A stretch of DNA of 35,038 bases. It comes from Candidatus Micrarchaeota archaeon (GTDB lineage: Archaea; Micrarchaeota; Micrarchaeia; Anstonellales; Bilamarchaeaceae). The position numbers and the translations under genes were made by a program. Shown one piece after another: positions 2,643 to 35,038 of this stretch. Numbering within the stretch: the first letter of the stretch is position 1; every line of letters begins with the position of its first letter. The stretch is taken from assembly GCA_040754495.1 (NCBI GenBank), contig JBFMCO010000065.1, forward strand, positions 1 through 35,038, read 5' to 3'. The notes under the pieces are model-generated. The model did not search any database. It saw only the letters and a list, made by a program, of their open reading frames with translations, and was not told the DNA's origin.

Positions 2643-4494
2643 ATGCCAGATGAAGCGGCCCGCCAGGCAGCCATGCAGCAACAGGCCCAGCAGCCTCAGG
2701 GGCCGATGATAGCCCGGCCTCCGCCTTCCCAGGTGGATGCGGGAAGCGTGGCGAATCAGGCGAGGCAGGGACTCTACGGAACGCGGGTTCTCCGGCTCAG
2801 AGGCCGACAGGGCGATATTGCGCGTCCTCGAGCCTGCGCTGCTCCCGATGCTCCAGGAGGCCGGGGGCATGGAAAGCGTCAGGGCGAAGCTGCAGGAAGT
2901 GGGATTCTCCGGGACCAATCTTGATGCGGCGCTATCCTCGCTGATGGAGCCGAGGAACATGCTGGTGGATTCTGCCAGGCTGAGGACCGAGCTGCAGGGC
3001 TATGAGGAGGTCTTCGAGTTCGGAAGGGACGTCAATCCCCTCCTGTCGCATCTCCGGGAGAAGATGCCGAGGGAGGATTTGAAGAACCGGAGGACCGGAG
3101 ACACTGGCGTGGACGAAATCCTGAACATGCCAGGCGGCGAGGCGGCCCTGAACACGCCCATAGCGCTCTGGACGCGCCAGAACCAGGCCAAGCTCGACAA
3201 CTACAACCAGCTCGCAGCGCAGGGGAAGCCGCCCAAGAACCCTCCACCGAACCGGGAAAAATTCGTCGGGAGCGAGGAGATTGCAGGCGCGCTCGCGGGC
3301 TTTGAGCGGCAGGTGGAGACCGGCTACGGAGCCGAGTTTGCAAAGAGCCTCAAGCTGATGGCAGCGGAGGGGAACACGGGCCTTCTCGAGGAATACAGGA
3401 GGCTCGGCCTGAGGCGGGAGGGAGAGGAGAACGGGGACGAGGGAAGGGAGAGGCAGCAGTCCTTCCTGGAGGGCCTGCTGGAAGACCGGGCACTGCTTGA
3501 AAAGTACATAGGCGATGAAGGCCTTCGCTCATACATACTTGCAGAGCCCGAGAGGCTGGGGATGCTTTTGGATGCGCGCTCTTCCATGGCTGGCATGGAG
3601 GAGGCCGGAAAACGTGTAGCGGCGGAAGACGGCAGCGTCACTTACCTTGACGTTCTCCGCCCGCTGGAGAACATGCAGAAATTCCTGGAAAGGCTTTTCG
3701 TTCCGGTCACATTCAGGGTGGAATCCAGGGACGGGAAGATAGTATACAACATAACGATGGACCCCGCCACTATAAGGCACTTTGTCGAGGGGCATGCGAA
3801 TGAGACCGTGCTGATGCCGGACGGGGAGGTCAACGTCGGCACTGCGGACGGGGCGTTCAGGCTTATCCAGCAGGCCATAGCAGCGCAGCCGTATGGGCGG
3901 CTGACATTCAGCGAACTTGGGAGGGAGGTTGCCAGGGGCATAGTAAGCGGGGCCGCACCCGGCAAGCCGCTGGAAAAAAGGGCAAGGGAGATTCTCGATA
4001 GCTCGATTGCGAACGCTGCGCCGGATTCGCCCTTCACTGCAAGGGCCAGGGAACTCCGCGAAGGCGGGATGCGTGAGGAGGACGCTTCCGCGCAGGCGCT
4101 GAAGGAGGGCGTCGCAGACATCAACAAGAAGGCAGACACCAAGCAGCAGAAGGAGCTGAAGGAACAGGTCCAGAGGCTTCTTGGCGATGCATCCAGGCAG
4201 GCTGTCCGGGAGATGGTCGGGAAGAATACCTCCCTGCAGCAGTTCAACGCGGGTTACGGCGATTACCCTGCCCCGGGAGTGGCATTCAGCTATTATGATT
4301 CCGCAAGAAGCTGGGAAGGAAGCGGAACCTTCGTCCAGCTCGCGGCGGCGCCGAAGGAGGGCGCGGAGCCGCTCAGGGAACTGCCAGACGGGCGGTTGGA
4401 ATACAATCTTACGTTCATAACGCTCTATCCGAACGGCGGGAACGGCGAAGGCCACTACAGGACGACGCTGGGCGCAGTGCAGGGAAGACGATAA
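2643..4494 (+). CDS. large hypothetical protein (~616 aa) with probable +1 frameshift near 2775; the uninterrupted ORF is 2737-4494
   Basis: ORF 2737-4494 is clearly coding. The Q/P-rich N-terminus from ATG 2643 lies in another frame and joins it if T2775 is removed. Confidence 0.7.
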
Positions 4495-6245: not shown

Positions 6246-6974
6246 TCAGGGGGCTTCAAGAGGCAGCCTGAAGGCCGCTGCGGCCTCCTCGACGCGTATG
6301 ATGCCGGTAACGCCCTCGTAATACATCCGGGCGGTGAATGATTCGGAGCGCAGGCTGGAAGCCGGGTGCAGCGGAGCATCGCTGTTTCCGGCAGGCGCAA
6401 GGCAACCCTTGAGGAACATTTTCGAAAAGCCTTCGGCCGCATCCCCCCCGCCCTCCTGCAGGAGGAGCCCGATTATGGCGCCCGGTATGTGCGCGCTATA
6501 CGACGGCGCATGGGGCTCGTATATGAACACCCCCCGGGGAGGGCGGTCTATCTGATGGATGTCGCCCACGAAGAGCGCCCTCCGCCAGAAATCTTCCTCC
6601 TGGAGCCCGAGCGCCTCCGCAACGACAGGATAGTCCTTCCTCCCTCCGGACAGGATGGTTTTTTCGGTAAAGACCCCGCTGAAAAACCCGGCAAGGCCGA
6701 ATCTCCGCAGCGCCTCGTGCGCATAGTCGTCCGGTGCCGCGGTCGTGAGGATATGCGAGAGGCCGATGCCCGAAAGGCTGGCGAGGACCGCCTTTATCCC
6801 CGGCCGAAGGCCATCCGTTCCCTCGTAGCGGTAGCCGTTCCTTTCCGCGGCTATCCCGTAAAAACGGCCGAGCGTCTCATCGAGGTCCCAGCAGACCAGG
6901 TTGTCGAGAAGGGGGGTATGGGCGGCGCGCGGCCTGGCTGGGGGGTTTAGAGCGGGAGGCGCCAGTTTTCTCAT
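6246..6974 (-). CDS. HAD-superfamily hydrolase (paralog of 1440-2153)
   Basis: CWDLDETLG, ILTTAA and LFVGD motifs. Start set at ATG 6974 (MRKLAPP) after an AT-rich gap. Confidence 0.85.
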   Translation of the reverse strand: MRKLAPPALNPPARPRAAHTPLLDNLVCWDLDETLGRFYGIAAERNGYRYEGTDGLRPGIKAVLASLSGIGLSHILTTAAPDDYAHEALRRFGLAGFFSGVFTEKTILSGGRKDYPVVAEALGLQEEDFWRRALFVGDIHQIDRPPRGVFIYEPHAPSYSAHIPGAIIGLLLQEGGGDAAEGFSKMFLKGCLAPAGNSDAPLHPASSLRSESFTARMYYEGVTGIIRVEEAAAAFRLPLEAP

Positions 6975-7024
6975 ATGGGATTGTTGTGTGGTAAAGTTTA
7001 AAAATATGTTAAAATACGGTTTTC

Positions 7025-7618
7025 TCAGCTTTTCTGCAGCAGTTTCACGCTGGAGACGTTCCCGTCCCTCCTGAGAAGCAGGTCGTATGAATAGCCGGCG
7101 GACGGCGAGTCCCATACGACCTTCCACGAGTCCTCCTGTTCCATTACCGCCGGGACCGCGTCGGGAAAGAGCCTCAGGTAGCCGCTTATCTCCCCGGTCC
7201 CGCTGAAAGTGTGCGACGCTATGACGGCCTCCTCGGGGAATGCGATGGTGCAGATGCCCTCGGTGCATACCAGGCACCCGGATGTTATCACTTCCGGAAG
7301 CTGGGGCACGAAGTTCTGCGCCGGATAATTGTAGAATATGTGCGAGCGCTCGGGACACGGAGTGCCAGCGCCCTCGGTGACGCGCGCCTTGACTTCGAAA
7401 TAGCGCTGTCCGTACTGGTTCGTCTTCTGGATGATTGTCATGATTTCGATGTCCTTCTCCGGGTCCACCTCCGGGTATTTGGAGCGCAAATCCTCAAGGA
7501 CGAACTTGCTCGCGTCGGCTTCCACGACATTGACCTGGAAGAACTCGATGAGCTTGACGAGCACCGCTATCACAAGAATAAGGGCCAGGATAAGCAGAAT
7601 CTCGCGGCGTATCGCCAT
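7025..7618 (-). CDS. membrane-anchored or secreted hypothetical protein
   Basis: N-terminal hydrophobic helix (ILLILALILVIAVLVKLI) and four Cys in the soluble part. Confidence 0.75.
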   Translation of the reverse strand: MAIRREILLILALILVIAVLVKLIEFFQVNVVEADASKFVLEDLRSKYPEVDPEKDIEIMTIIQKTNQYGQRYFEVKARVTEGAGTPCPERSHIFYNYPAQNFVPQLPEVITSGCLVCTEGICTIAFPEEAVIASHTFSGTGEISGYLRLFPDAVPAVMEQEDSWKVVWDSPSAGYSYDLLLRRDGNVSSVKLLQKS

Positions 7619-10743: not shown

Positions 10744-11745
10744 TTAGACGTGCGTGAACTCGAGCTGCGTCCTGCACTGCGAGTCCTCGCCGAAATAGCC
10801 CGAGATGAACAGCTTGAAGTAGCCGAGAAGCGGGATTCTGCCGATGACCTTGCCCCGCGAGTTCTCCTCCGGGATGGGGCGGTTCATGAGGTCCCGCCCG
10901 TAATCATAGACCTGCATGTCAAGGACCGGGTTGTTGTCCCCGCGCGTTATGTAATAGCCTTTCCCGTCCGCGTCTATCCTGAACAGCACCCGGTGGACGA
11001 TGTCGCCTATCTTCGCATATGCATCCCCGGCACCGGGCTGGTAGACTATGACGTCATTGGAGAAATTTGTGAGGTATTCGGTGCCATGGAACGCGACTGA
11101 TTTCAGGCAGGGCATCGAGCCGGCAGTGCCGTTCGAGAACGAAATGCCGCACCGCTCGTAGCGGTACGTGAATGCGCCCTTCTTTTCCAGGAACGAGCCG
11201 GGGGAAGTTATGAACGCCTGGCACATCTGGCTCCCCCTGCTCGCGATGCAGTACGGGAGCAGAGAGCCCTTTATGGTCGCGTTCCCGCCGTCGTAGGTTA
11301 TCATGGAGTCGGACGTGAGGGATTCGAGCTCTGCCCCGCTCATGTCGAGCTGGTATGCGCGGACAGGCGCCCCCTGCACAAGCACGAAATCCCCGCGCTG
11401 GAGATTAGGGAGCATGCTGCATGAAACCACGGCGGATAGTGGGGAACTCGTGTTCAGCACCAGCGAGGCGCCGAACCAGATGCCGACCGCGACGAGCAGG
11501 GCGACGACCGTGTCCACGACCTCGTGCTTCCAGCCGTGCTTCTTGGCGCCGTCCTTAACCTCCAGGGCGACGAAATAAGCGATTTCGACTACGATGAGGA
11601 TGCCGAAAAGCGGCGAGAGGAGGTTCAGCGGGAACCCTGAATCGCGGAAAAGAAAGTTCGACAGGAGCGCGAGGACGAGCGTGCCAAAAAGCGCCAGGAG
11701 CTGGACCTGGGGCTTCTTGATATTCTCCCGGGTGATTTGCATCAT
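10744..11745 (-). CDS. signal peptidase I (S26, archaeal Sec11-type) with large insertion
   Basis: Catalytic VVSCSMLPNLQRGD, IVHRV and YITRGDNNPVLD motifs, with N-terminal TM helices. Confidence 0.9.
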   Translation of the reverse strand: MMQITRENIKKPQVQLLALFGTLVLALLSNFLFRDSGFPLNLLSPLFGILIVVEIAYFVALEVKDGAKKHGWKHEVVDTVVALLVAVGIWFGASLVLNTSSPLSAVVSCSMLPNLQRGDFVLVQGAPVRAYQLDMSGAELESLTSDSMITYDGGNATIKGSLLPYCIASRGSQMCQAFITSPGSFLEKKGAFTYRYERCGISFSNGTAGSMPCLKSVAFHGTEYLTNFSNDVIVYQPGAGDAYAKIGDIVHRVLFRIDADGKGYYITRGDNNPVLDMQVYDYGRDLMNRPIPEENSRGKVIGRIPLLGYFKLFISGYFGEDSQCRTQLEFTHV

Positions 11746-22670: not shown

Positions 22671-22952
22671 TCACTGATTGCCGGATACTTCGAGCGCGGC
22701 CGCCTCTCCCGAGAGCCTGAGATATATTTCCTCGCTCAGGGCCTTGTCCTCGCCCTCCAGGAAAGCGTACAGACCCGGCTCGGAGCTGCGCATCTTCGAG
22801 AAGAATTCCTTTTTCTCCCGGAGGATTCTCATCGCCTCGGCCCGGCTTGCTGTCCTCAGCTTCTGCATCCATCTGACGTATTTGGAGATGGCTTCGCGGT
22901 AGGGCGCGGAATTGACGAGCTTTGCCAGCCGTTCGCCGAATTCAGACGCCAT
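22671..22952 (-). CDS. small helical hypothetical protein (93 aa)
   Basis: Start set at ATG 22952 (MASEFGERL) with GGAGGT upstream, overlapping the protease stop. Confidence 0.7.
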   Translation of the reverse strand: MASEFGERLAKLVNSAPYREAISKYVRWMQKLRTASRAEAMRILREKKEFFSKMRSSEPGLYAFLEGEDKALSEEIYLRLSGEAAALEVSGNQ

Positions 22953-24105
22953 GCGCAAGACCTCCCTGCTGCTCCATCCTGGCCCTCGCCCCGCTGACAA
23001 TCGGGTCCTGGTCCCATGTCGAATGGTCGATTCCCTGCGCATCCATGCGCCCGACTATGTAGGAAAGCGCCTCGGCCGCCCCGCGCTTGCCCATGAGCGT
23101 ATCGAAACTCCCTGCGCCAAGCTGCGAGTCCAGCCGCGTGCGCACTTCCGTGAAATCGCCCGTGAAATACGCGGTGCGGAGCACGGCCTCGCCGCCCTCG
23201 CCGAGCAGCTGCTGGAGATAGAAGCTGGTGGTCGTTTCGGCCGGGTAATTCACAGAACGGGGCCCGAGTCCGCGCGAGCGGATTTCCTGCTGCGTGATGA
23301 GCTCTGTCAGGCCCTCGTGGGCCATCCACCCCATCCGCTGGTCGCAGGAGTAGAGGTTCCCGTCGTCCCCCCTCCAGCGCATATCGGCCCCGCCGCCGAG
23401 CCAGGCAGCGTAATGCAGCTGCTCGTGGAGCAGGATGTGCCGTGATTCGCCTTCCCCGTATCCGAGAAGGGCGTCCTGGCCGCTGATGATGATTGCGTTA
23501 GCCCCTGGCAGGAACGCCCCGGGCGAGCCGAGCATCTGGAGGGAAACGAACAGCTCCTCGCCGCGTATGTCCTCGCCATGGTGCATGACCGCTACGACAG
23601 GCGGCGCGCCGGAAACCCGCTCCGCGAGGTCCGCCCCGGCGATGGATGGCAGCCAGTTCTGGCATATGTCGGCTGACAGCTCCCCGAGCGTCGCATCTTC
23701 CAGCGGCCCGAGGTAGGGGATGGCTGAGTAGTCGTCTTCGGAAATGACGCGCTCCGGCCCCGCATGCCCTTCGGCCATGCGCGACCATTCCTCTTCGCTG
23801 ATGGCAGAAACAGGCCCCTGCGCAATCCTGCCCCTCGTGGCGCGGAGCATGGACTGCCACCTCTCCCCCTGCAGTTGCCCCAAAGACCCGGGCCGGCTCC
23901 CGCCCCGCGAATCATCCTGCGGGAGCGACTCCTTGACCGTAGCGGCGTAGGTTATCAGCCCCATCAGGGCATTTTCCGCGGCACGCAGCGACCTCTCGAG
24001 GAGCACTGGCAAAGTAAGCCTCGGAACCGGGGATTGCGACTCCTCGCGGTGCTGGGGCAAAGGATTGGCAGTCTTCCTTCCCATTTCGGCCTCGGCGCCC
24101 CCCAT
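22942..24105 (-). CDS. putative zinc metallopeptidase (HExxH, gluzincin-like)
   Basis: ILLHEQLHYAA followed by HEGLTELIT (candidate third ligand Glu). Confidence 0.8.
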   Translation of the reverse strand: MGGAEAEMGRKTANPLPQHREESQSPVPRLTLPVLLERSLRAAENALMGLITYAATVKESLPQDDSRGGSRPGSLGQLQGERWQSMLRATRGRIAQGPVSAISEEEWSRMAEGHAGPERVISEDDYSAIPYLGPLEDATLGELSADICQNWLPSIAGADLAERVSGAPPVVAVMHHGEDIRGEELFVSLQMLGSPGAFLPGANAIIISGQDALLGYGEGESRHILLHEQLHYAAWLGGGADMRWRGDDGNLYSCDQRMGWMAHEGLTELITQQEIRSRGLGPRSVNYPAETTTSFYLQQLLGEGGEAVLRTAYFTGDFTEVRTRLDSQLGAGSFDTLMGKRGAAEALSYIVGRMDAQGIDHSTWDQDPIVSGARARMEQQGGLAHGV

Positions 24106-30716: not shown

Positions 30717-30902
30717 TCAGCCGCCGATGCGGATGCCCTGCGCCTTCCCGACCTCTTCCGTGAGGCCGGCCCTGTGCATGGGGCAGCGGGTGAAGACCTG
30801 CTTCTGGGGGCGGGATATCTCCGCCCTGGACCAGCCGAGCTGGATGAGCCGCTCGACTTGGCCAGTGCAACTGGCCTTGCACTTGTCGCACTTGACCTTC
30901 AT
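30717..30902 (-). CDS. small putative zinc-binding protein (61 aa, CxxC...CxxH)
   Basis: MKVKCDKCK...TRCPMH, with a strong AAGGAGG five nt upstream of ATG 30902. Confidence 0.7.
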   Translation of the reverse strand: MKVKCDKCKASCTGQVERLIQLGWSRAEISRPQKQVFTRCPMHRAGLTEEVGKAQGIRIGG

Positions 30903-31203
30903 GATTTGCCTCCTTAATGAATTTGCATTTATATAGTGTTTGAACGTGTTATTAAAGCGATAATGCGGGATTGAACGCTGCCGCAATCGCATTTCCAGCA
31001 GATTATAGTCGGATTTCGTTACTTTTTGCGGCGTATGGAACCAATACGGCCAGCCACGCCAGGAGGCTCCCTGACATTGCCCCGGTTACATGGATTTCGT
31101 CCGGTATGCGGGGGATTGCGAGGTTTCCTATATCTCCCCATCTGCCGATTTGGGAGCAAACACGATGCGGGCGCACTATTCTTTGTTGCAGTCGTGCCCA
31201 TAG

Positions 31204-34200
31204 TCACTCGACAACTGGCACTCCCGAATCCCCCGCGATTTTCCTCAAAGCGGCTTCGATTTCCCCCGTCTCGACCTCTCCCAGATATTTCTTCATCTTT
31301 TCAAGGTATTTTCTTGTCAGCTCCAGCCTCCTTTCCCGGCCCAGATAAAGGAAGTCCTTGACGGCACCCCCCTCTTCATCGGGAAAACGCCTGATGGCCT
31401 CTCCCGTTCTGGCCGCCTCACGCGTCGCTTCGCGCGCAAGAGCCAATAGTCTTTCCGGCTTGGTCTTCAGATAAGAACCGAGCATGACGCTATCGACACG
31501 GCCCTCGAAATCCGCATAACAGTCTTTCAGGAATTTAGTCCGGTCTCCGATTTTGGCCGGGTCGTCCAGCCTCTTGGGAAGGTCGATTATCGCAAGATGC
31601 CCTTCCGGCCTGGAAGCCCCGTTTATTTCGGACTCCGCGTCCGTAATCTTTATCTCTATATCGCCCGGATTGTAGCCCTCATCCAGCAAGGTTTTCATGA
31701 ATTCCTTCACCTTGGCCAGCTTTTCAGGCGTCATATGCTTCTTCAGGACTTCAGCGGTGATGAGCTTCGGCTCGACGACGCTTCCGGGGACGTAATCCAT
31801 CGCATATCCAATATTGCCGTCAACGTTTACGATGCCGTAGACCCTTGGCGCATGGTCCCGGAAGCCAGGGTATTTGCCCATCGAATCGATGGCCGCGTAC
31901 TCGGCAAGGACCGCCTCGATTGGAGTTTTTGATGTTTTCGAGACATCTTTGAAAATCTTCACCGCCACAGTTTTCGGGTTTCCATCGATAATGACTTCAG
32001 CCCGATAAACACGGCCAGAGCTTCCCATCTCGCGCCCGCCAGCATCAAGGTCTATCGCTTCCAGCAGGCGGGCCCGCGGGGCGTCCTCAAAAAATCCTTC
32101 CGTAGTCATTCCGGATCCGGACAGGGGTACTTTTCTTTTGTAGATGTCGGCTCCGACGCCCTTGAAAGCCCCTGCATCGGCTGATGATAGCGGCACCGCG
32201 TGCGGCCTGAGCGCTGCGTCTTCGAAATAGGCGATGGCTGCATCGCGCCGGATGCCTTTACCTACAAGGGACTCCACTTCCGCGACGAGTCTCGCTTCTT
32301 CAAGGCTTAGCGGTTCTCCCTTTTCACGCTTCTCATATATCGCATCGATTCTCCTCTTCAGCGAAGCTTCTGGAGGTTTCGGCGGAACCGCTACCGCAAT
32401 CTTTTCCGCCCCCGCAGCAGCAGCGGCGAATTCGTTCTCTATCTTAGGTACATAATCCCTCGCGATCGTAACGAGGTCGAATTTCATGAAAACAGTCGTG
32501 GCGGTTTTGAACCGCTTCTTTCCTTTCGCATCCAAGACCATGTCCTTGATGATTTTCGCTACGGGCGTGTCGCCGAGGCCGGCGAGCCTCTTTTCCGCAT
32601 CCGCCTCGTTTCTCAGAAGCCCCCGCACGAAGTCTGCGAGTTTCTCGGGATTGCCGAGCTCTTTCGTCCCTGATGAATATTTTTCCAAAACGCCTGCAGC
32701 GAATTCTTCATGCTTCCCTCCGATTTCCAGTTTTGGACCCGGAGGTTCGGGCGGGCGCATCCCCGGTGGACCGGAAACGCCGGAAGGAGGGTGGCCGGAG
32801 GGTGCCGCGGGAGGTTTGCCCGCCTCCGCTTCGTATTTGGAAATGGCCGATTCAGCGAACTTTTCGTGCTTGAGCTCTATCGTCCTGTATGGAGGAATGT
32901 CCATAGCGACAGCGAAATTGCCATCGACGTTCACAAAGCCGTAGAAATTGGGGCCGCGCCCCTCTTTTGCGAACAATCCCAGCGAGTGGGATTTCAATTC
33001 ATCGGCTTTTTTCAGGGCATCCGCAAATGCCATGTCCCAGCTTCCGCCTTCGCCGGGTTTGGGGGAGATGATCACTATGACTTCTTTCGGTTTTCCATCC
33101 ACCATTATTTCGGCAAGATAGTGGCCTCCTGTCGTGGTGTGTTCCCCCGCCTCGAAGCGAACTCCCGCGGCTGCCGCAACCTCTCCGGCTGGTCCGGTCG
33201 ATGGAATATCGAGCCTCTTTATCAGCCTCGCCCGCGGGGCGTCCTTGAGGGGTGCTTCTTTAAGAGTGGCAATGCCGAGAGGGTTAAGCTTCTCCAATAG
33301 CGGAACTTTCCGCGCGTAATAGTCCACAGGCATTCCTGTAAAGGCATCATCCAGAGCGGCTGCATGGGGCCGCAAGATAGCATCTGCCGCGTAAGTGAGG
33401 GCTTCCGCGCTCGTCATTCCCCGTTCGTATTCCAGCTTTTCTGCAAGTCCGGCCTCCGGTTTAGGACGAGCTACTTCCGGAGTGATTTCGAAATGTTCCG
33501 GCGGCGCCGGGTAATAGCGCAATGATTCTATGTGCGAGGCTATCTCGTGAAGGCTCCTTCCTTCAACTATCATGCGGATCGCTTCGACGCCCTCTGCCCC
33601 ATGAAGTGCTCCCCTGCTGCTTTCCAATTTTTTGTAGGCGCCCAGATGCTCCGGGTCCAGCCGGCCTTTGAGCCGTAAATGCTCTTCCTCGAGCCTGGCA
33701 TGGCTTGCATGCTCCAGCTCTTCCGCAGATATCCCGAAAAGCACCTTGCTCGTGAACCTGTGCACAACTTTTCCCGCCCTGCTTCTGGGGCTCATCCTAG
33801 CGACATAGCGGGCACCGCCCATATGCAGAAACGGCCATGCGGACATGAGGCCCTCGAAAGCGACGGTGCCTGCACCCTCCCCGCTCTCTATCGCATGGCT
33901 TATGGCAAGGCCGCCGCTGACGGCGCCATACCCGAGAAGGCCCATATTAACAGTATCTACCCCGTACTTCAGCGCCTTCAATCCTGCCGATTTCGCCACC
34001 GCAGATTCTCCTGCGGCAAGCAGCTTCATCGAACCAAGATCAGAAAGAACACCAAGGGCATCGGCGGCGATGTTTATGACCATCATCGTCCTTTCGCTTT
34101 CGGGTATGTAGTCCCAGGCACCGTAAGTAACCATCGCCTCGGATGTCTCTACGATGCTTCTCGACAAATAGACTCCGGAAACGACCGCAGTCATGCCCGT

Positions 34201-34890
34201 CGGTATCGCGGCTATGTTTATGACGATATCAAGACCGTGCTTTATGTTCGCGGCGACCTTGTCCCATTCCCTCGCCTCCGACGCGAACATCTCCACCTCG
34301 CTGATCATCAGATTCTTACGGGCTTCGATTCTCGCTGCGGTCATGGAGGCCGGCTCCGTCCTCACCATCTCGTAGCCTGCGGACCGGTCCGCGGCATCCC
34401 GGACTATTGAACCGGAATCGGCCGCAATCGCGCTGGCGCCGCCCTTCACCGCCTCCACGCCCAAACGGCGCTCATCAAGGCTCAGGATGCTTTTCGGCCC
34501 CGCAAGCTCCTCGAGGCAGCCCGTCGCGGCAGCAAGGCTTCCGTACGCATCAACGAGGGCATCTTTATCTTCCGAAGACAGCCCGAGTGCCCTCCATTTG
34601 CCGCCGCTGTCTTTGCCCACATCGAGCATAAAGCCCATGAGCGCCTCGGCCCTTCCAATGGCCGCCACCTTCGCCCCTTCGACCAGGAATGGATATTTTT
34701 CCGCCGCTTCCTCCTCTAGCGCAGCCGGTGCTCCTGCCGCTATGCCCACGATGAGCTCGTCAAGTGCGGCCATCCTTCCTTCCGGAGCCGAAATCGATCT
34801 CGGCGTCATGTACTCTCCGGTATATGCCAGGTCATATCTTGGCACCGGAGGAAGCTTTACCAGGGCGCCCTTCGTTATCGTATCTGACAA
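31204..34890 (-). CDS. large protein with hydrophobic N-terminal region, degenerate kinase-like repeat and C-terminal protein-kinase-like domain; 5' end uncertain
   Basis: MGSSGRVYRA, VAVKIF, EYAAI, VYGIV...YAMDYVPG, PGDIEI and IIDLP, plus an internal duplication of the LRPHA...DAPRARL...NVDGN module. Confidence 0.8.
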   Translation of the reverse strand: MSDTITKGALVKLPPVPRYDLAYTGEYMTPRSISAPEGRMAALDELIVGIAAGAPAALEEEAAEKYPFLVEGAKVAAIGRAEALMGFMLDVGKDSGGKWRALGLSSEDKDALVDAYGSLAAATGCLEELAGPKSILSLDERRLGVEAVKGGASAIAADSGSIVRDAADRSAGYEMVRTEPASMTAARIEARKNLMISEVEMFASEAREWDKVAANIKHGLDIVINIAAIPTGMTAVVSGVYLSRSIVETSEAMVTYGAWDYIPESERTMMVINIAADALGVLSDLGSMKLLAAGESAVAKSAGLKALKYGVDTVNMGLLGYGAVSGGLAISHAIESGEGAGTVAFEGLMSAWPFLHMGGARYVARMSPRSRAGKVVHRFTSKVLFGISAEELEHASHARLEEEHLRLKGRLDPEHLGAYKKLESSRGALHGAEGVEAIRMIVEGRSLHEIASHIESLRYYPAPPEHFEITPEVARPKPEAGLAEKLEYERGMTSAEALTYAADAILRPHAAALDDAFTGMPVDYYARKVPLLEKLNPLGIATLKEAPLKDAPRARLIKRLDIPSTGPAGEVAAAAGVRFEAGEHTTTGGHYLAEIMVDGKPKEVIVIISPKPGEGGSWDMAFADALKKADELKSHSLGLFAKEGRGPNFYGFVNVDGNFAVAMDIPPYRTIELKHEKFAESAISKYEAEAGKPPAAPSGHPPSGVSGPPGMRPPEPPGPKLEIGGKHEEFAAGVLEKYSSGTKELGNPEKLADFVRGLLRNEADAEKRLAGLGDTPVAKIIKDMVLDAKGKKRFKTATTVFMKFDLVTIARDYVPKIENEFAAAAAGAEKIAVAVPPKPPEASLKRRIDAIYEKREKGEPLSLEEARLVAEVESLVGKGIRRDAAIAYFEDAALRPHAVPLSSADAGAFKGVGADIYKRKVPLSGSGMTTEGFFEDAPRARLLEAIDLDAGGREMGSSGRVYRAEVIIDGNPKTVAVKIFKDVSKTSKTPIEAVLAEYAAIDSMGKYPGFRDHAPRVYGIVNVDGNIGYAMDYVPGSVVEPKLITAEVLKKHMTPEKLAKVKEFMKTLLDEGYNPGDIEIKITDAESEINGASRPEGHLAIIDLPKRLDDPAKIGDRTKFLKDCYADFEGRVDSVMLGSYLKTKPERLLALAREATREAARTGEAIRRFPDEEGGAVKDFLYLGRERRLELTRKYLEKMKKYLGEVETGEIEAALRKIAGDSGVPVVE

Positions 34891-35038
34891 ATCGTATTCC
34901 AGCCCGCCTTTTGATAGTCAGGGACATAAATAGGCGAACATTTTGGGCATCACGAAACCCTTCTTGACAAAGTTGCGGATAGACTGCTGGACCGCATGTA
35001 TGTTCCGATAATACCTATTCCACAGTGGCTTCTTGATC

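Follow-up and report, generated by a model that had tools for sequence, protein, structure and literature searches.

A probable free-standing, insertion-clipped copy of a giant-protein cassette with a membrane-type helical module and a kinase-fold domain in a Candidatus Micrarchaeota archaeon

Micrarchaeota and other DPANN archaea rely on host cells, and how they act on these hosts is largely unknown. Very large proteins have been described in the nanohaloarchaea as 'SPEARE' giants, which possess a Sec signal and a membrane anchor together with Ig-like arrays and a VirB4/TraG-like ATPase (PMC10266531). Among proteins with a kinase fold, the closest described relatives of the protein considered here are the RIO kinases, the Hanks kinases, the small bacterial proteins OspG and HopBF1 and, by arrangement, the pseudokinase-kinase tandems of the JAK type. 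The present analysis concerns an open reading frame (ORF) at 31204..34890 on the minus strand of a 35,038-base stretch of Candidatus Micrarchaeota DNA (the window), which is the complete contig C65 of its own-genome assembly (G000; 1.63 Mb, 72 contigs, 80% complete). The ORF, placed at these positions by a preliminary description made from the sequence, runs uninterrupted for 1228 codons from a TTG start, and it is probably, if only just, a free-standing copy, clipped by an insertion sequence (IS), of a cassette that otherwise lies within genus-specific giant proteins and that joins a helical module of membrane type to a kinase-fold domain. Four parts would make up this cassette: a helical module of ~400 residues with 2-4 Gly-rich helices, a degenerate N-lobe repeat, a Pro-rich linker with a short region, and a compact kinase-like domain with a tail.

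The protein-kinase-like domain occupies residues 851-1110 (31561..32340, minus strand, as are all features of the ORF given below) and is delimited by the model, by structural searches and by profile matches as N-terminal helices, an N-lobe and a short C-lobe without an activation loop; it is followed by a C-terminal tail of modelled helices (residues 1111-1228, 31207..31560), ending in ...SGVPVVE, that is conserved in three relatives (P0003, P0004 and P0012). The AlphaFold model of residues 851-1228 (378 residues), built on an alignment of this region with 16 relatives (A1, 17 sequences), exhibits a compact bilobal kinase fold with a predicted local distance difference test score (pLDDT) of 88.6 and a predicted template modelling score of 0.85. 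Foldseek searches of the PDB with this model gave at least 500 matches at E ≤ 0.001 (best E 7e-6), the 50 listed being all protein kinases, and the Foldseek-independent comparison VIA listed 50 structures that are by title all kinases, pseudokinases or kinase-holding complexes, led by AfRio1 of A. fulgidus (1zp9; Z 10.4, root mean square deviation 4.2, 198 residues aligned) and Rio2 (6fdo; Z 10.1) and including OspG (4q5h; Z 9.5, 160/169 residues), PknB (Z 9.4) and HopBF1 (6pwd; Z 8.9, 167/176). By hhalign, A1 was aligned with the RIO1 of the same genome over the N-lobe (79% probability, E 1.6e-5), pairing the Gly-loop, VAVK(I/V)(F/Y)K and the helix-C glutamate, and as a profile A1 matched StkP (E 1e-4) and Rio1 (E 0.024) among PDB sequences and also retrieved, from further genomes of Micrarchaeota, RIO kinases and a single Hanks kinase. 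The kinase fold that the preliminary description had assigned to the C-terminus, naming AlphaFold and Foldseek as the check, was therefore recovered by the model, Foldseek, VIA, hhalign and the StkP profile match. Pfam placed the domain neither in PF00069 (Hanks/Pkinase), its profile match to StkP covering the N-lobe only, nor in PF01163 (RIO), where the hhalign match is again confined to the N-lobe and the C-lobe motifs are unlike those of the own RIO1. On the model, residues 851-1228 are a new, compact and very divergent domain of the protein-kinase-like superfamily, with an N-lobe related to those of RIO and Hanks kinases.

The columns invariant in A1 are G956, G970, A976, K978, E997, G1025, N1026, G1036, G1072 and D1077, and they include the Gly-rich loop (G956, 32023..32025), the β3 lysine of VAVK (K978, 31957..31959), which aligns with the VAVK of RIO1 and StkP, the helix-C glutamate (E997, 31900..31902) and the catalytic-loop aspartate of PGDIE (D1077, 31660..31662), which has no Asn at +5 and carries at +2 a Glu here and a Gln in most relatives. 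The DFG-like aspartate of IIDLP (D1103, 31582..31584) stands at the end of a strand (model residues 249-253) and is kept wherever A1 reaches; in the model the chain enters helices straight after it, with no activation loop. The family catalytic motif reads G-D-(F/L)-Q-(F/Y), with G-D-I-E-I in the 1228-residue protein and its closest relative, P0003. All of the motifs quoted in the preliminary description were found at their places (DAILRPHA at residue 503, DAALRPHA at 891, NVDGN at 654 and 1022, MGSSGRVY at 955, VAVK at 975, PGDIE at 1075, IIDLP at 1101 and VIVII at 604), and its view that the C-terminal module keeps the ATP-binding and catalytic residues agrees with the conservation in A1. 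Judging from these residues and the modelled fold, the most likely function of the domain is ATP binding, coupled either to phosphorylation of a docked partner or to the working of a RIO-like ATPase switch at the membrane. Mg-ATP would be bound between the lobes in the usual manner, after which the γ-phosphate would pass to a partner or the domain would work as a RIO-like ATPase or autophosphorylating switch; the Gln or Glu two residues past the catalytic Asp may substitute for the absent Asn, the helical tail could dock the partner, and the hydrophobic helices of the N-terminal module would hold the protein at the membrane.

An exhaustive phmmer search with residues 471-1228, as a single-sequence query against 1.84 billion representative proteins, returned 14 proteins at E ≤ 1e-3, the query included, and the 13 relatives are of 2308, 1975, 1456, 777, 2857, 6174, 7279, 6756, 985, 3575, 334, 427 and 374 residues. 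Ten of them were looked up and are unnamed or called 'hypothetical protein', save one named for an HD-GYP domain; extra domains comprise a metallophosphatase in one relative, an HD domain in another and a sub-threshold M24-like match in a third. A homologue search with the whole protein among proteins of similar length found only itself, and a search with the A1 profile among proteins of 749-2135 residues found only itself and P0004. Matches to A1 were present in 10 of 401 genomes of the phylum, three of them being to ordinary RIO or Hanks kinases and seven to true members. Five of these seven genomes belong to the genus of the window (G000 included), and in them the module lies in ORFs of 2805-8609 residues, the 2805-residue ORF being that of G378, and in the ORF analysed here (1237 residues in this count); the other two hold small stand-alone forms of 349 and 179 residues. 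Within G000, three giant ORFs of 6842, 6659 and 6149 residues possess one kinase-like module each and almost nothing that Pfam detects, and in G089 an ORF of at least 3094 residues carries the N-terminal module (1745-2085) and then the kinase module (2600-2859), followed by the helical tail and a Gly/Pro linker. The family is rare, has no Pfam or NCBIfam model and is almost confined to ORFs of 2,300-8,600 residues in one Micrarchaeota genus. An invariant architecture among homologues, which the preliminary description had named as an outcome that would count against its proposal, was not found, the architecture being highly variable.

Several further observations concern the same proteins. Stand-alone members outside the genus are L019 (G255:C52, 349 residues) and L020 (G061:C12, 179 residues), together with P0013-P0015; the D-(F/L)-Q and second-Asp motifs are retained in these small members, which could represent the simplest versions available for study. 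The giant ORFs of G000, each of more than 6000 residues, lie at C22:20175-40700, C42:26730-46706 and C42:3460-21906, and the assembly holds at least six further ORFs of 2000-4000 residues (on C57, C15, C16, C67, C56 and C51), those on C57, C15 and C67 being cut by contig ends. The left end of C15 (C15_L) and the right end of C67 (C67_R) are 91% identical over 298 bases, which indicates paralogous giant genes.

The N-terminal module (residues ~48-460, 33511..34749), predicted to be all-helical and defined by its profile (A2) and a model, is shared with giant ORFs of the genus. Residues 85-447 match P0007 directly upstream of the kinase module of that protein (E 9e-15). Profile A2 was matched in 15 of the 401 phylum genomes, namely G000, 13 of the 28 remaining members of its genus and a single genome from a sister genus, and apart from the 1228-codon ORF its copies always lie within ORFs of 2805-7702 residues. 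Foldseek found no specific fold match for the N-terminal model (best E 0.13, TM-score ~0.1), and VIA retrieved generic or designed helical bundles only, none above Z 12.7 and all under the noise level that the tool states for helical folds. Kyte-Doolittle analysis marks Gly-rich hydrophobic helices at residues ~222-242, 268-290, 316-336 and 340-362 (33805..34227), which are conserved in homologues; their 19-residue means are 1.79 (residues 222-240) and 1.25-1.33 (the others), against a threshold of 1.6, and the same positions are more hydrophobic in the homologues, 12 of 15 of which have at least one segment at 1.6 or above. In the three giants of G000 the peaks of at least 1.6 number one or two per protein, none of the three has an N-terminal signal-like segment, and in C42:26730-46706, the only giant in which the module was mapped, the hydrophobic peak falls inside it. 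The sequences suggest that the N-terminal module is the sole candidate membrane element of the giants, where it may act as an internal anchor or as a device for insertion.

A rival reading takes the protein for a delivered effector, as the preliminary description proposed, its Gly-rich helices being a membrane-insertion or translocation device that carries a kinase-fold enzyme (in the giants, many modules) into the host archaeon, as multi-effector toxins do. The idea stays alive because the only hydrophobic segments of the giants lie in the N-terminal module: the Gly-rich helices are conserved and are the only membrane-like segments in soluble-looking, signal-less proteins. Two minimal kinase effectors, OspG and HopBF1, rank among the close structural matches, but the fits of RIO and ordinary kinases equal or surpass theirs. 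Members of the family bear metallophosphatase and HD or HD-GYP domains and the sub-threshold M24-like match, and the genes, accessory and limited to the genus, have a patchy distribution, occupy a variable slot and neighbour mobile DNA; an interaction with hosts has also been put forward for other giant DPANN proteins (PMC10266531). An atlas search gave weak leads to the pre-toxin families PT-TG (0.85), DUF4225 (0.85) and ToxA_N (0.84), all of which fall under the tool's 0.9 threshold for a lead. Pore formers occur among the helical bundles matched by the N-terminal model (Z 8-9.5), but none of these bundle matches exceeds the noise level stated for helical folds. Neither a signal peptide nor a secretion-system gene, processing protease or immunity gene was found, Pfam and PADLOC reported nothing, and the small ORF downstream is conserved in a relative that lacks the 1228-codon gene. 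The polymorphic-toxin picture of the preliminary description fared no better, given that a search with the N-terminal region yielded no short proteins with variable C-terminal toxins and, apart from the 1228-codon ORF itself, met the module only inside ORFs of 2805-7702 residues; the protein has no signal peptide and no match in Pfam, NCBIfam or PADLOC, the genes downstream are housekeeping genes, and the gene itself is clipped by an IS. A delivered effector is accordingly quite unlikely in our estimation. More improbable still is the fuller version, in which the Gly-rich module inserts itself as a translocation device and the giants and the short copy are archaeal counterparts of multi-effector toxins, crossing the host membrane with kinase-fold, phosphatase and HD modules; were it true, it would constitute a route of protein delivery from symbiont to host that is not known in archaea.

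Between the N-terminal module and the kinase-fold domain of the favoured cassette lies the degenerate repeat. Residues 490-674 and 878-1042 share 66/196 identities (34%; BLASTP E 2e-23), with a Smith-Waterman score of 217 compared with 36.1 ± 5.6 in 200 shuffles (z = 32), and the internal repeat of ~180 residues noted in the preliminary description, with nucleotide ranges that agree with ours, is thereby borne out. Copy 1 (residues 490-674, 32869..33423) is by the repeat alignment a degenerate duplicate of the N-lobe alone: it has Thr at the position of G956 and Ile at those of both A976 and K978, stops at the hinge without a C-lobe and gives way to a Pro-rich linker (residues ~697-725, 32716..32802). 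Its earlier designation as a pseudokinase holds in that it lacks the lysine (VIVII) and the C-lobe and ends in a Pro-rich stretch, but it is an N-lobe fragment and not a full pseudokinase. A recent origin of copy 1 by duplication of copy 2 was considered and rejected, copy 1 being about equally distant from copy 2 and from the modules of other proteins. The middle region (residues ~726-850, 32341..32715) follows, of which the last ~65 residues weakly match P0004 beside its kinase-like module. In a relative of ~94% identity, represented by a 1361-base contig of run X2, the segment of residues ~417-673 that includes copy 1 (32872..33643) is swapped for 163 other bases, which join 32871 to 33644 with a net change of -609 nt (-203 codons) and the frame kept; a contig of run X5 diverges at the same point, 32871, while contigs of runs X1 and X3 span parts of the segment. 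Copy 1 is thus dispensable, being missing from at least one close relative.

The 5' end of the ORF is shaped by a mobile element. The end of the window (34915..35038, minus strand) is the outer end of a multicopy IS630-type element with the last 39 codons of its DDE_3 transposase, recognised by its repetition at contig ends and its absence from this site in relatives, and the contig breaks here. Seven other contig ends of G000 repeat the last 125 bases (34914-35038) exactly and six ends in G050 do so at 92% identity, and a G402 relative of the 39-residue tail (56% identity) contains HTH_33/32/29/23 and DDE_3 (E 8e-19), which identifies the IS630 type. The 39-residue upstream peptide has no match in the giants and proved to be this transposase tail. 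The boundary of the IS lies 24 nt upstream of the TTG, from which the frame stays open as far as a TGA at 34918-34920, inside the element. In G000 the IS-bearing ends are, besides the window end, both ends of C10 and ends of C61, C32, C56, C46 and C19, the body of the element being unassembled, and all eight junctions read A-TAGTCAGGG. Three more families of identical contig ends of ~125 bases (7, 7 and 13 ends) suggest that other multicopy elements fragment the assembly.

The gene was compared with contigs from four public runs of three studies, and in all four a contig with 90-97% identity to the 5' part extends to 34914, beyond which the runs share one different sequence. The 30 bases of it that are visible form ten sense codons (MDAFQLGMLL) that join SKGGLEYD and then the TTG codon, such that in the relatives at least 19 codons ahead of the TTG are open, in-frame ATGs standing 19 and 12 codons before it. 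Since Met28 is Ile in all four relatives, it does not serve as the start codon, and the region before it is coding, because codons 13, 22 and 23 differ only synonymously; of the 40 strain differences listed (out of 128), synonymous changes make up 20 and third codon positions account for 22. The TTG start and the length of 1228 residues, the latter as given in the preliminary description, are an artefact of the IS630-type element at ~34915, the frame continuing in the related strains. No metagenome contig gave an exact match to the 30-base sequence of the relatives or to window positions 34885-34914, no other contig end of the assembly bears an upstream fragment of the gene, and a homologue search with the first 120 residues among proteins of similar length found no fragment with the native upstream end. 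Whether the native gene began at one of the two upstream ATGs or was a far longer, giant one, the insertion has removed its start or the core-promoter position, and the gene may be silent in its own genome.

Another account would have the ORF as an intact and naturally short gene that starts at the TTG and is expressed normally, the IS having landed in intergenic DNA. Its 1228 codons are uninterrupted, the IS boundary at 24 nt before the TTG leaves the annotated frame uncut, and small stand-alone members of the family do exist (349 residues in G255, 334-427 among the representative proteins). The relatives, however, keep the frame open ten codons past the insertion point and 19 before the TTG, with two upstream ATGs, and all other copies of the N-terminal module lie deep inside ORFs of at least 2805 residues. 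Position -24 is the core-promoter position of archaeal genes, and an insertion there would occupy it; the identical IS copies, moreover, suggest a recent insertion, so that an open frame says little about present function. We consider this account doubtful and retain the reading of an IS-clipped copy of the giant-protein cassette.

A number of observations weigh against the favoured reading in its several parts. For the single 1228-residue protein, Pfam detected no family even at E ≤ 10, NCBIfam and PADLOC likewise gave none, and a sequence search of the PDB produced a chance match only (E 0.8). Foldseek TM-scores among the listed matches are low (0.27-0.45), the top VIA scores of Z ~10 are only moderate, and at sequence level the C-lobe resembles no kinase, with the hhalign and HMMER alignments ending at the hinge. 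The N-terminal model is all helices and of low confidence (pLDDT 65), and where the preliminary description had counted several GxxxG-type hydrophobic helices, the Gly-rich helices are indeed conserved but just one segment (222-240) exceeds the 1.6 transmembrane threshold in the 1228-residue protein. At the upstream end, the 30 bases of the relatives are open in all three frames, which is weak evidence alone. Finally, the catalytic loop is non-canonical, with the metal-binding Asn of HRDxxxxN absent and a strand beginning 2 residues past D1077, and the 1228-residue protein and P0003 have DIE and IIDLP where the family consensus is DFQ and WDAG. Classical phosphotransfer is unproven because of the missing Asn and the early strand. 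Several atypical kinase-fold proteins carry other chemistries or act as scaffolds, and the fold might here serve AMPylation or glutamylation or provide a non-catalytic nucleotide-binding scaffold; the shortened, non-canonical loop without Asn, the D-x-Q/E motif and the lack of both an activation loop and a substrate-binding lobe would suit such a use. Yet the Gly-loop, the Lys, the Glu and the two Asp are all conserved in their usual positions, which fits ordinary ATP binding, and no sign of flipped nucleotide binding was seen, as judged without atomic coordinates. A use of the fold for other chemistry or as a scaffold is on this evidence unlikely, and ATP binding with phosphotransfer or a RIO-like switch is preferred.

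The ORF shares the window with archaeal housekeeping genes (exosome subunits, SBDS, LonB, ribosomal protein S15, PmbA/TldD, purA and an ACT-domain protein), and the 'protease cassette' of the preliminary description turned out to be the ordinary LonB and PmbA/TldD. Directly downstream of the ORF are a small conserved ORF, the ACT-domain gene and purA. The closest matches of purA (66-72% identity) come from metagenome-assembled genomes of Candidatus Micrarchaeota. The order DHH-purA-ACT is kept in four relatives, and in one of the four the small ORF, of 61 residues, is kept as well. The large ORF on the far side of this block differs among the four and in none is it related to the 1228-codon ORF, which therefore occupies a variable, accessory slot. 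Large ORFs (>818 to 1214 residues) upstream of ACT-purA at the syntenic position, L054:3-3587, L056:182-3823 and L055:3-2459, have no Pfam domain and are unrelated to each other and to the 1228-codon ORF, that of L056 having a signal-like N-terminus and matching C31 and C48 in G000; this seems to be a variable slot that hosts large lineage-specific proteins. The small downstream ORF (30717-30992, minus strand) contains Cys residues (CxxC ... CPxH), is conserved only over residues 31-91 (70% identity in L053), which makes Met31 the likely start, and has no paralogue in its own genome. The ORFs at 2737-4494 (plus strand) and at 6246-7358, 10744-11745 and 22942-24105 (minus strand) are sizeable and without a Pfam family.

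Giant, nearly unannotated proteins take up a large part of the 1-1.6 Mb genomes of this genus, and two of their recurring parts can now be defined: a compact kinase-fold domain that, from its conserved residues, appears able to bind ATP, and the only membrane-like module. Both offer handles for biochemistry, as the 378-residue domain is predicted to fold confidently and could be expressed alone, and natural variants with and without copy 1, and with and without the IS, reveal which parts are dispensable. The kinase fold is already known, and what is contributed is a useful new family and not a new principle.

Full-text searches of the literature listed no paper on kinase-fold modules in giant proteins of Micrarchaeota. 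As very large, lineage-specific DPANN proteins, the giants resemble the SPEARE proteins, which are likewise suspected of a part in host interaction, but they differ from these (PMC10266531) in lacking an N-terminal signal peptide, in having only 1-2 internal hydrophobic segments and in containing almost no Pfam domains. OspG and HopBF1 are similar to the present domain in size and core, nearly the whole of each chain being aligned, whereas they are bacterial type III substrates and here neither a sequence relation nor a secretion context was found. The JAK-type pseudokinase-kinase tandems (TYK2, 4oli, being among the VIA matches) share the placement of a degenerate copy N-terminal to an intact one, although copy 1 here is an N-lobe fragment that at least one close relative does without, and the likeness to the regulation of JAK tandems is one of analogy only. 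Hanks kinases (StkP, PknA/PknB; PF00069) are linked to the domain by the StkP N-lobe profile match and the Z score of PknB, while the domain has no PF00069 match and lacks HRDxxxxN, DFG, APE and the activation segment. The RIO kinases differ in their catalytic loop (HaDLSEYN in the own RIO1) and IDxxQ motif, as opposed to GD(F/I)(Q/E)(F/I), without Asn, and xxD(A/L)(G/P) here; PF01163 does not match, the present family has in addition a long tail of helices and occurs in multi-module or giant architectures, and RIO is a universal ribosome-biogenesis factor whereas the gene here is accessory. Notwithstanding these differences, it is RIO kinases that give the best structural match, which extends over the N-terminal helices, and they share with the present domain an alignable N-lobe, a compact C-lobe without an activation loop and an archaeal provenance.

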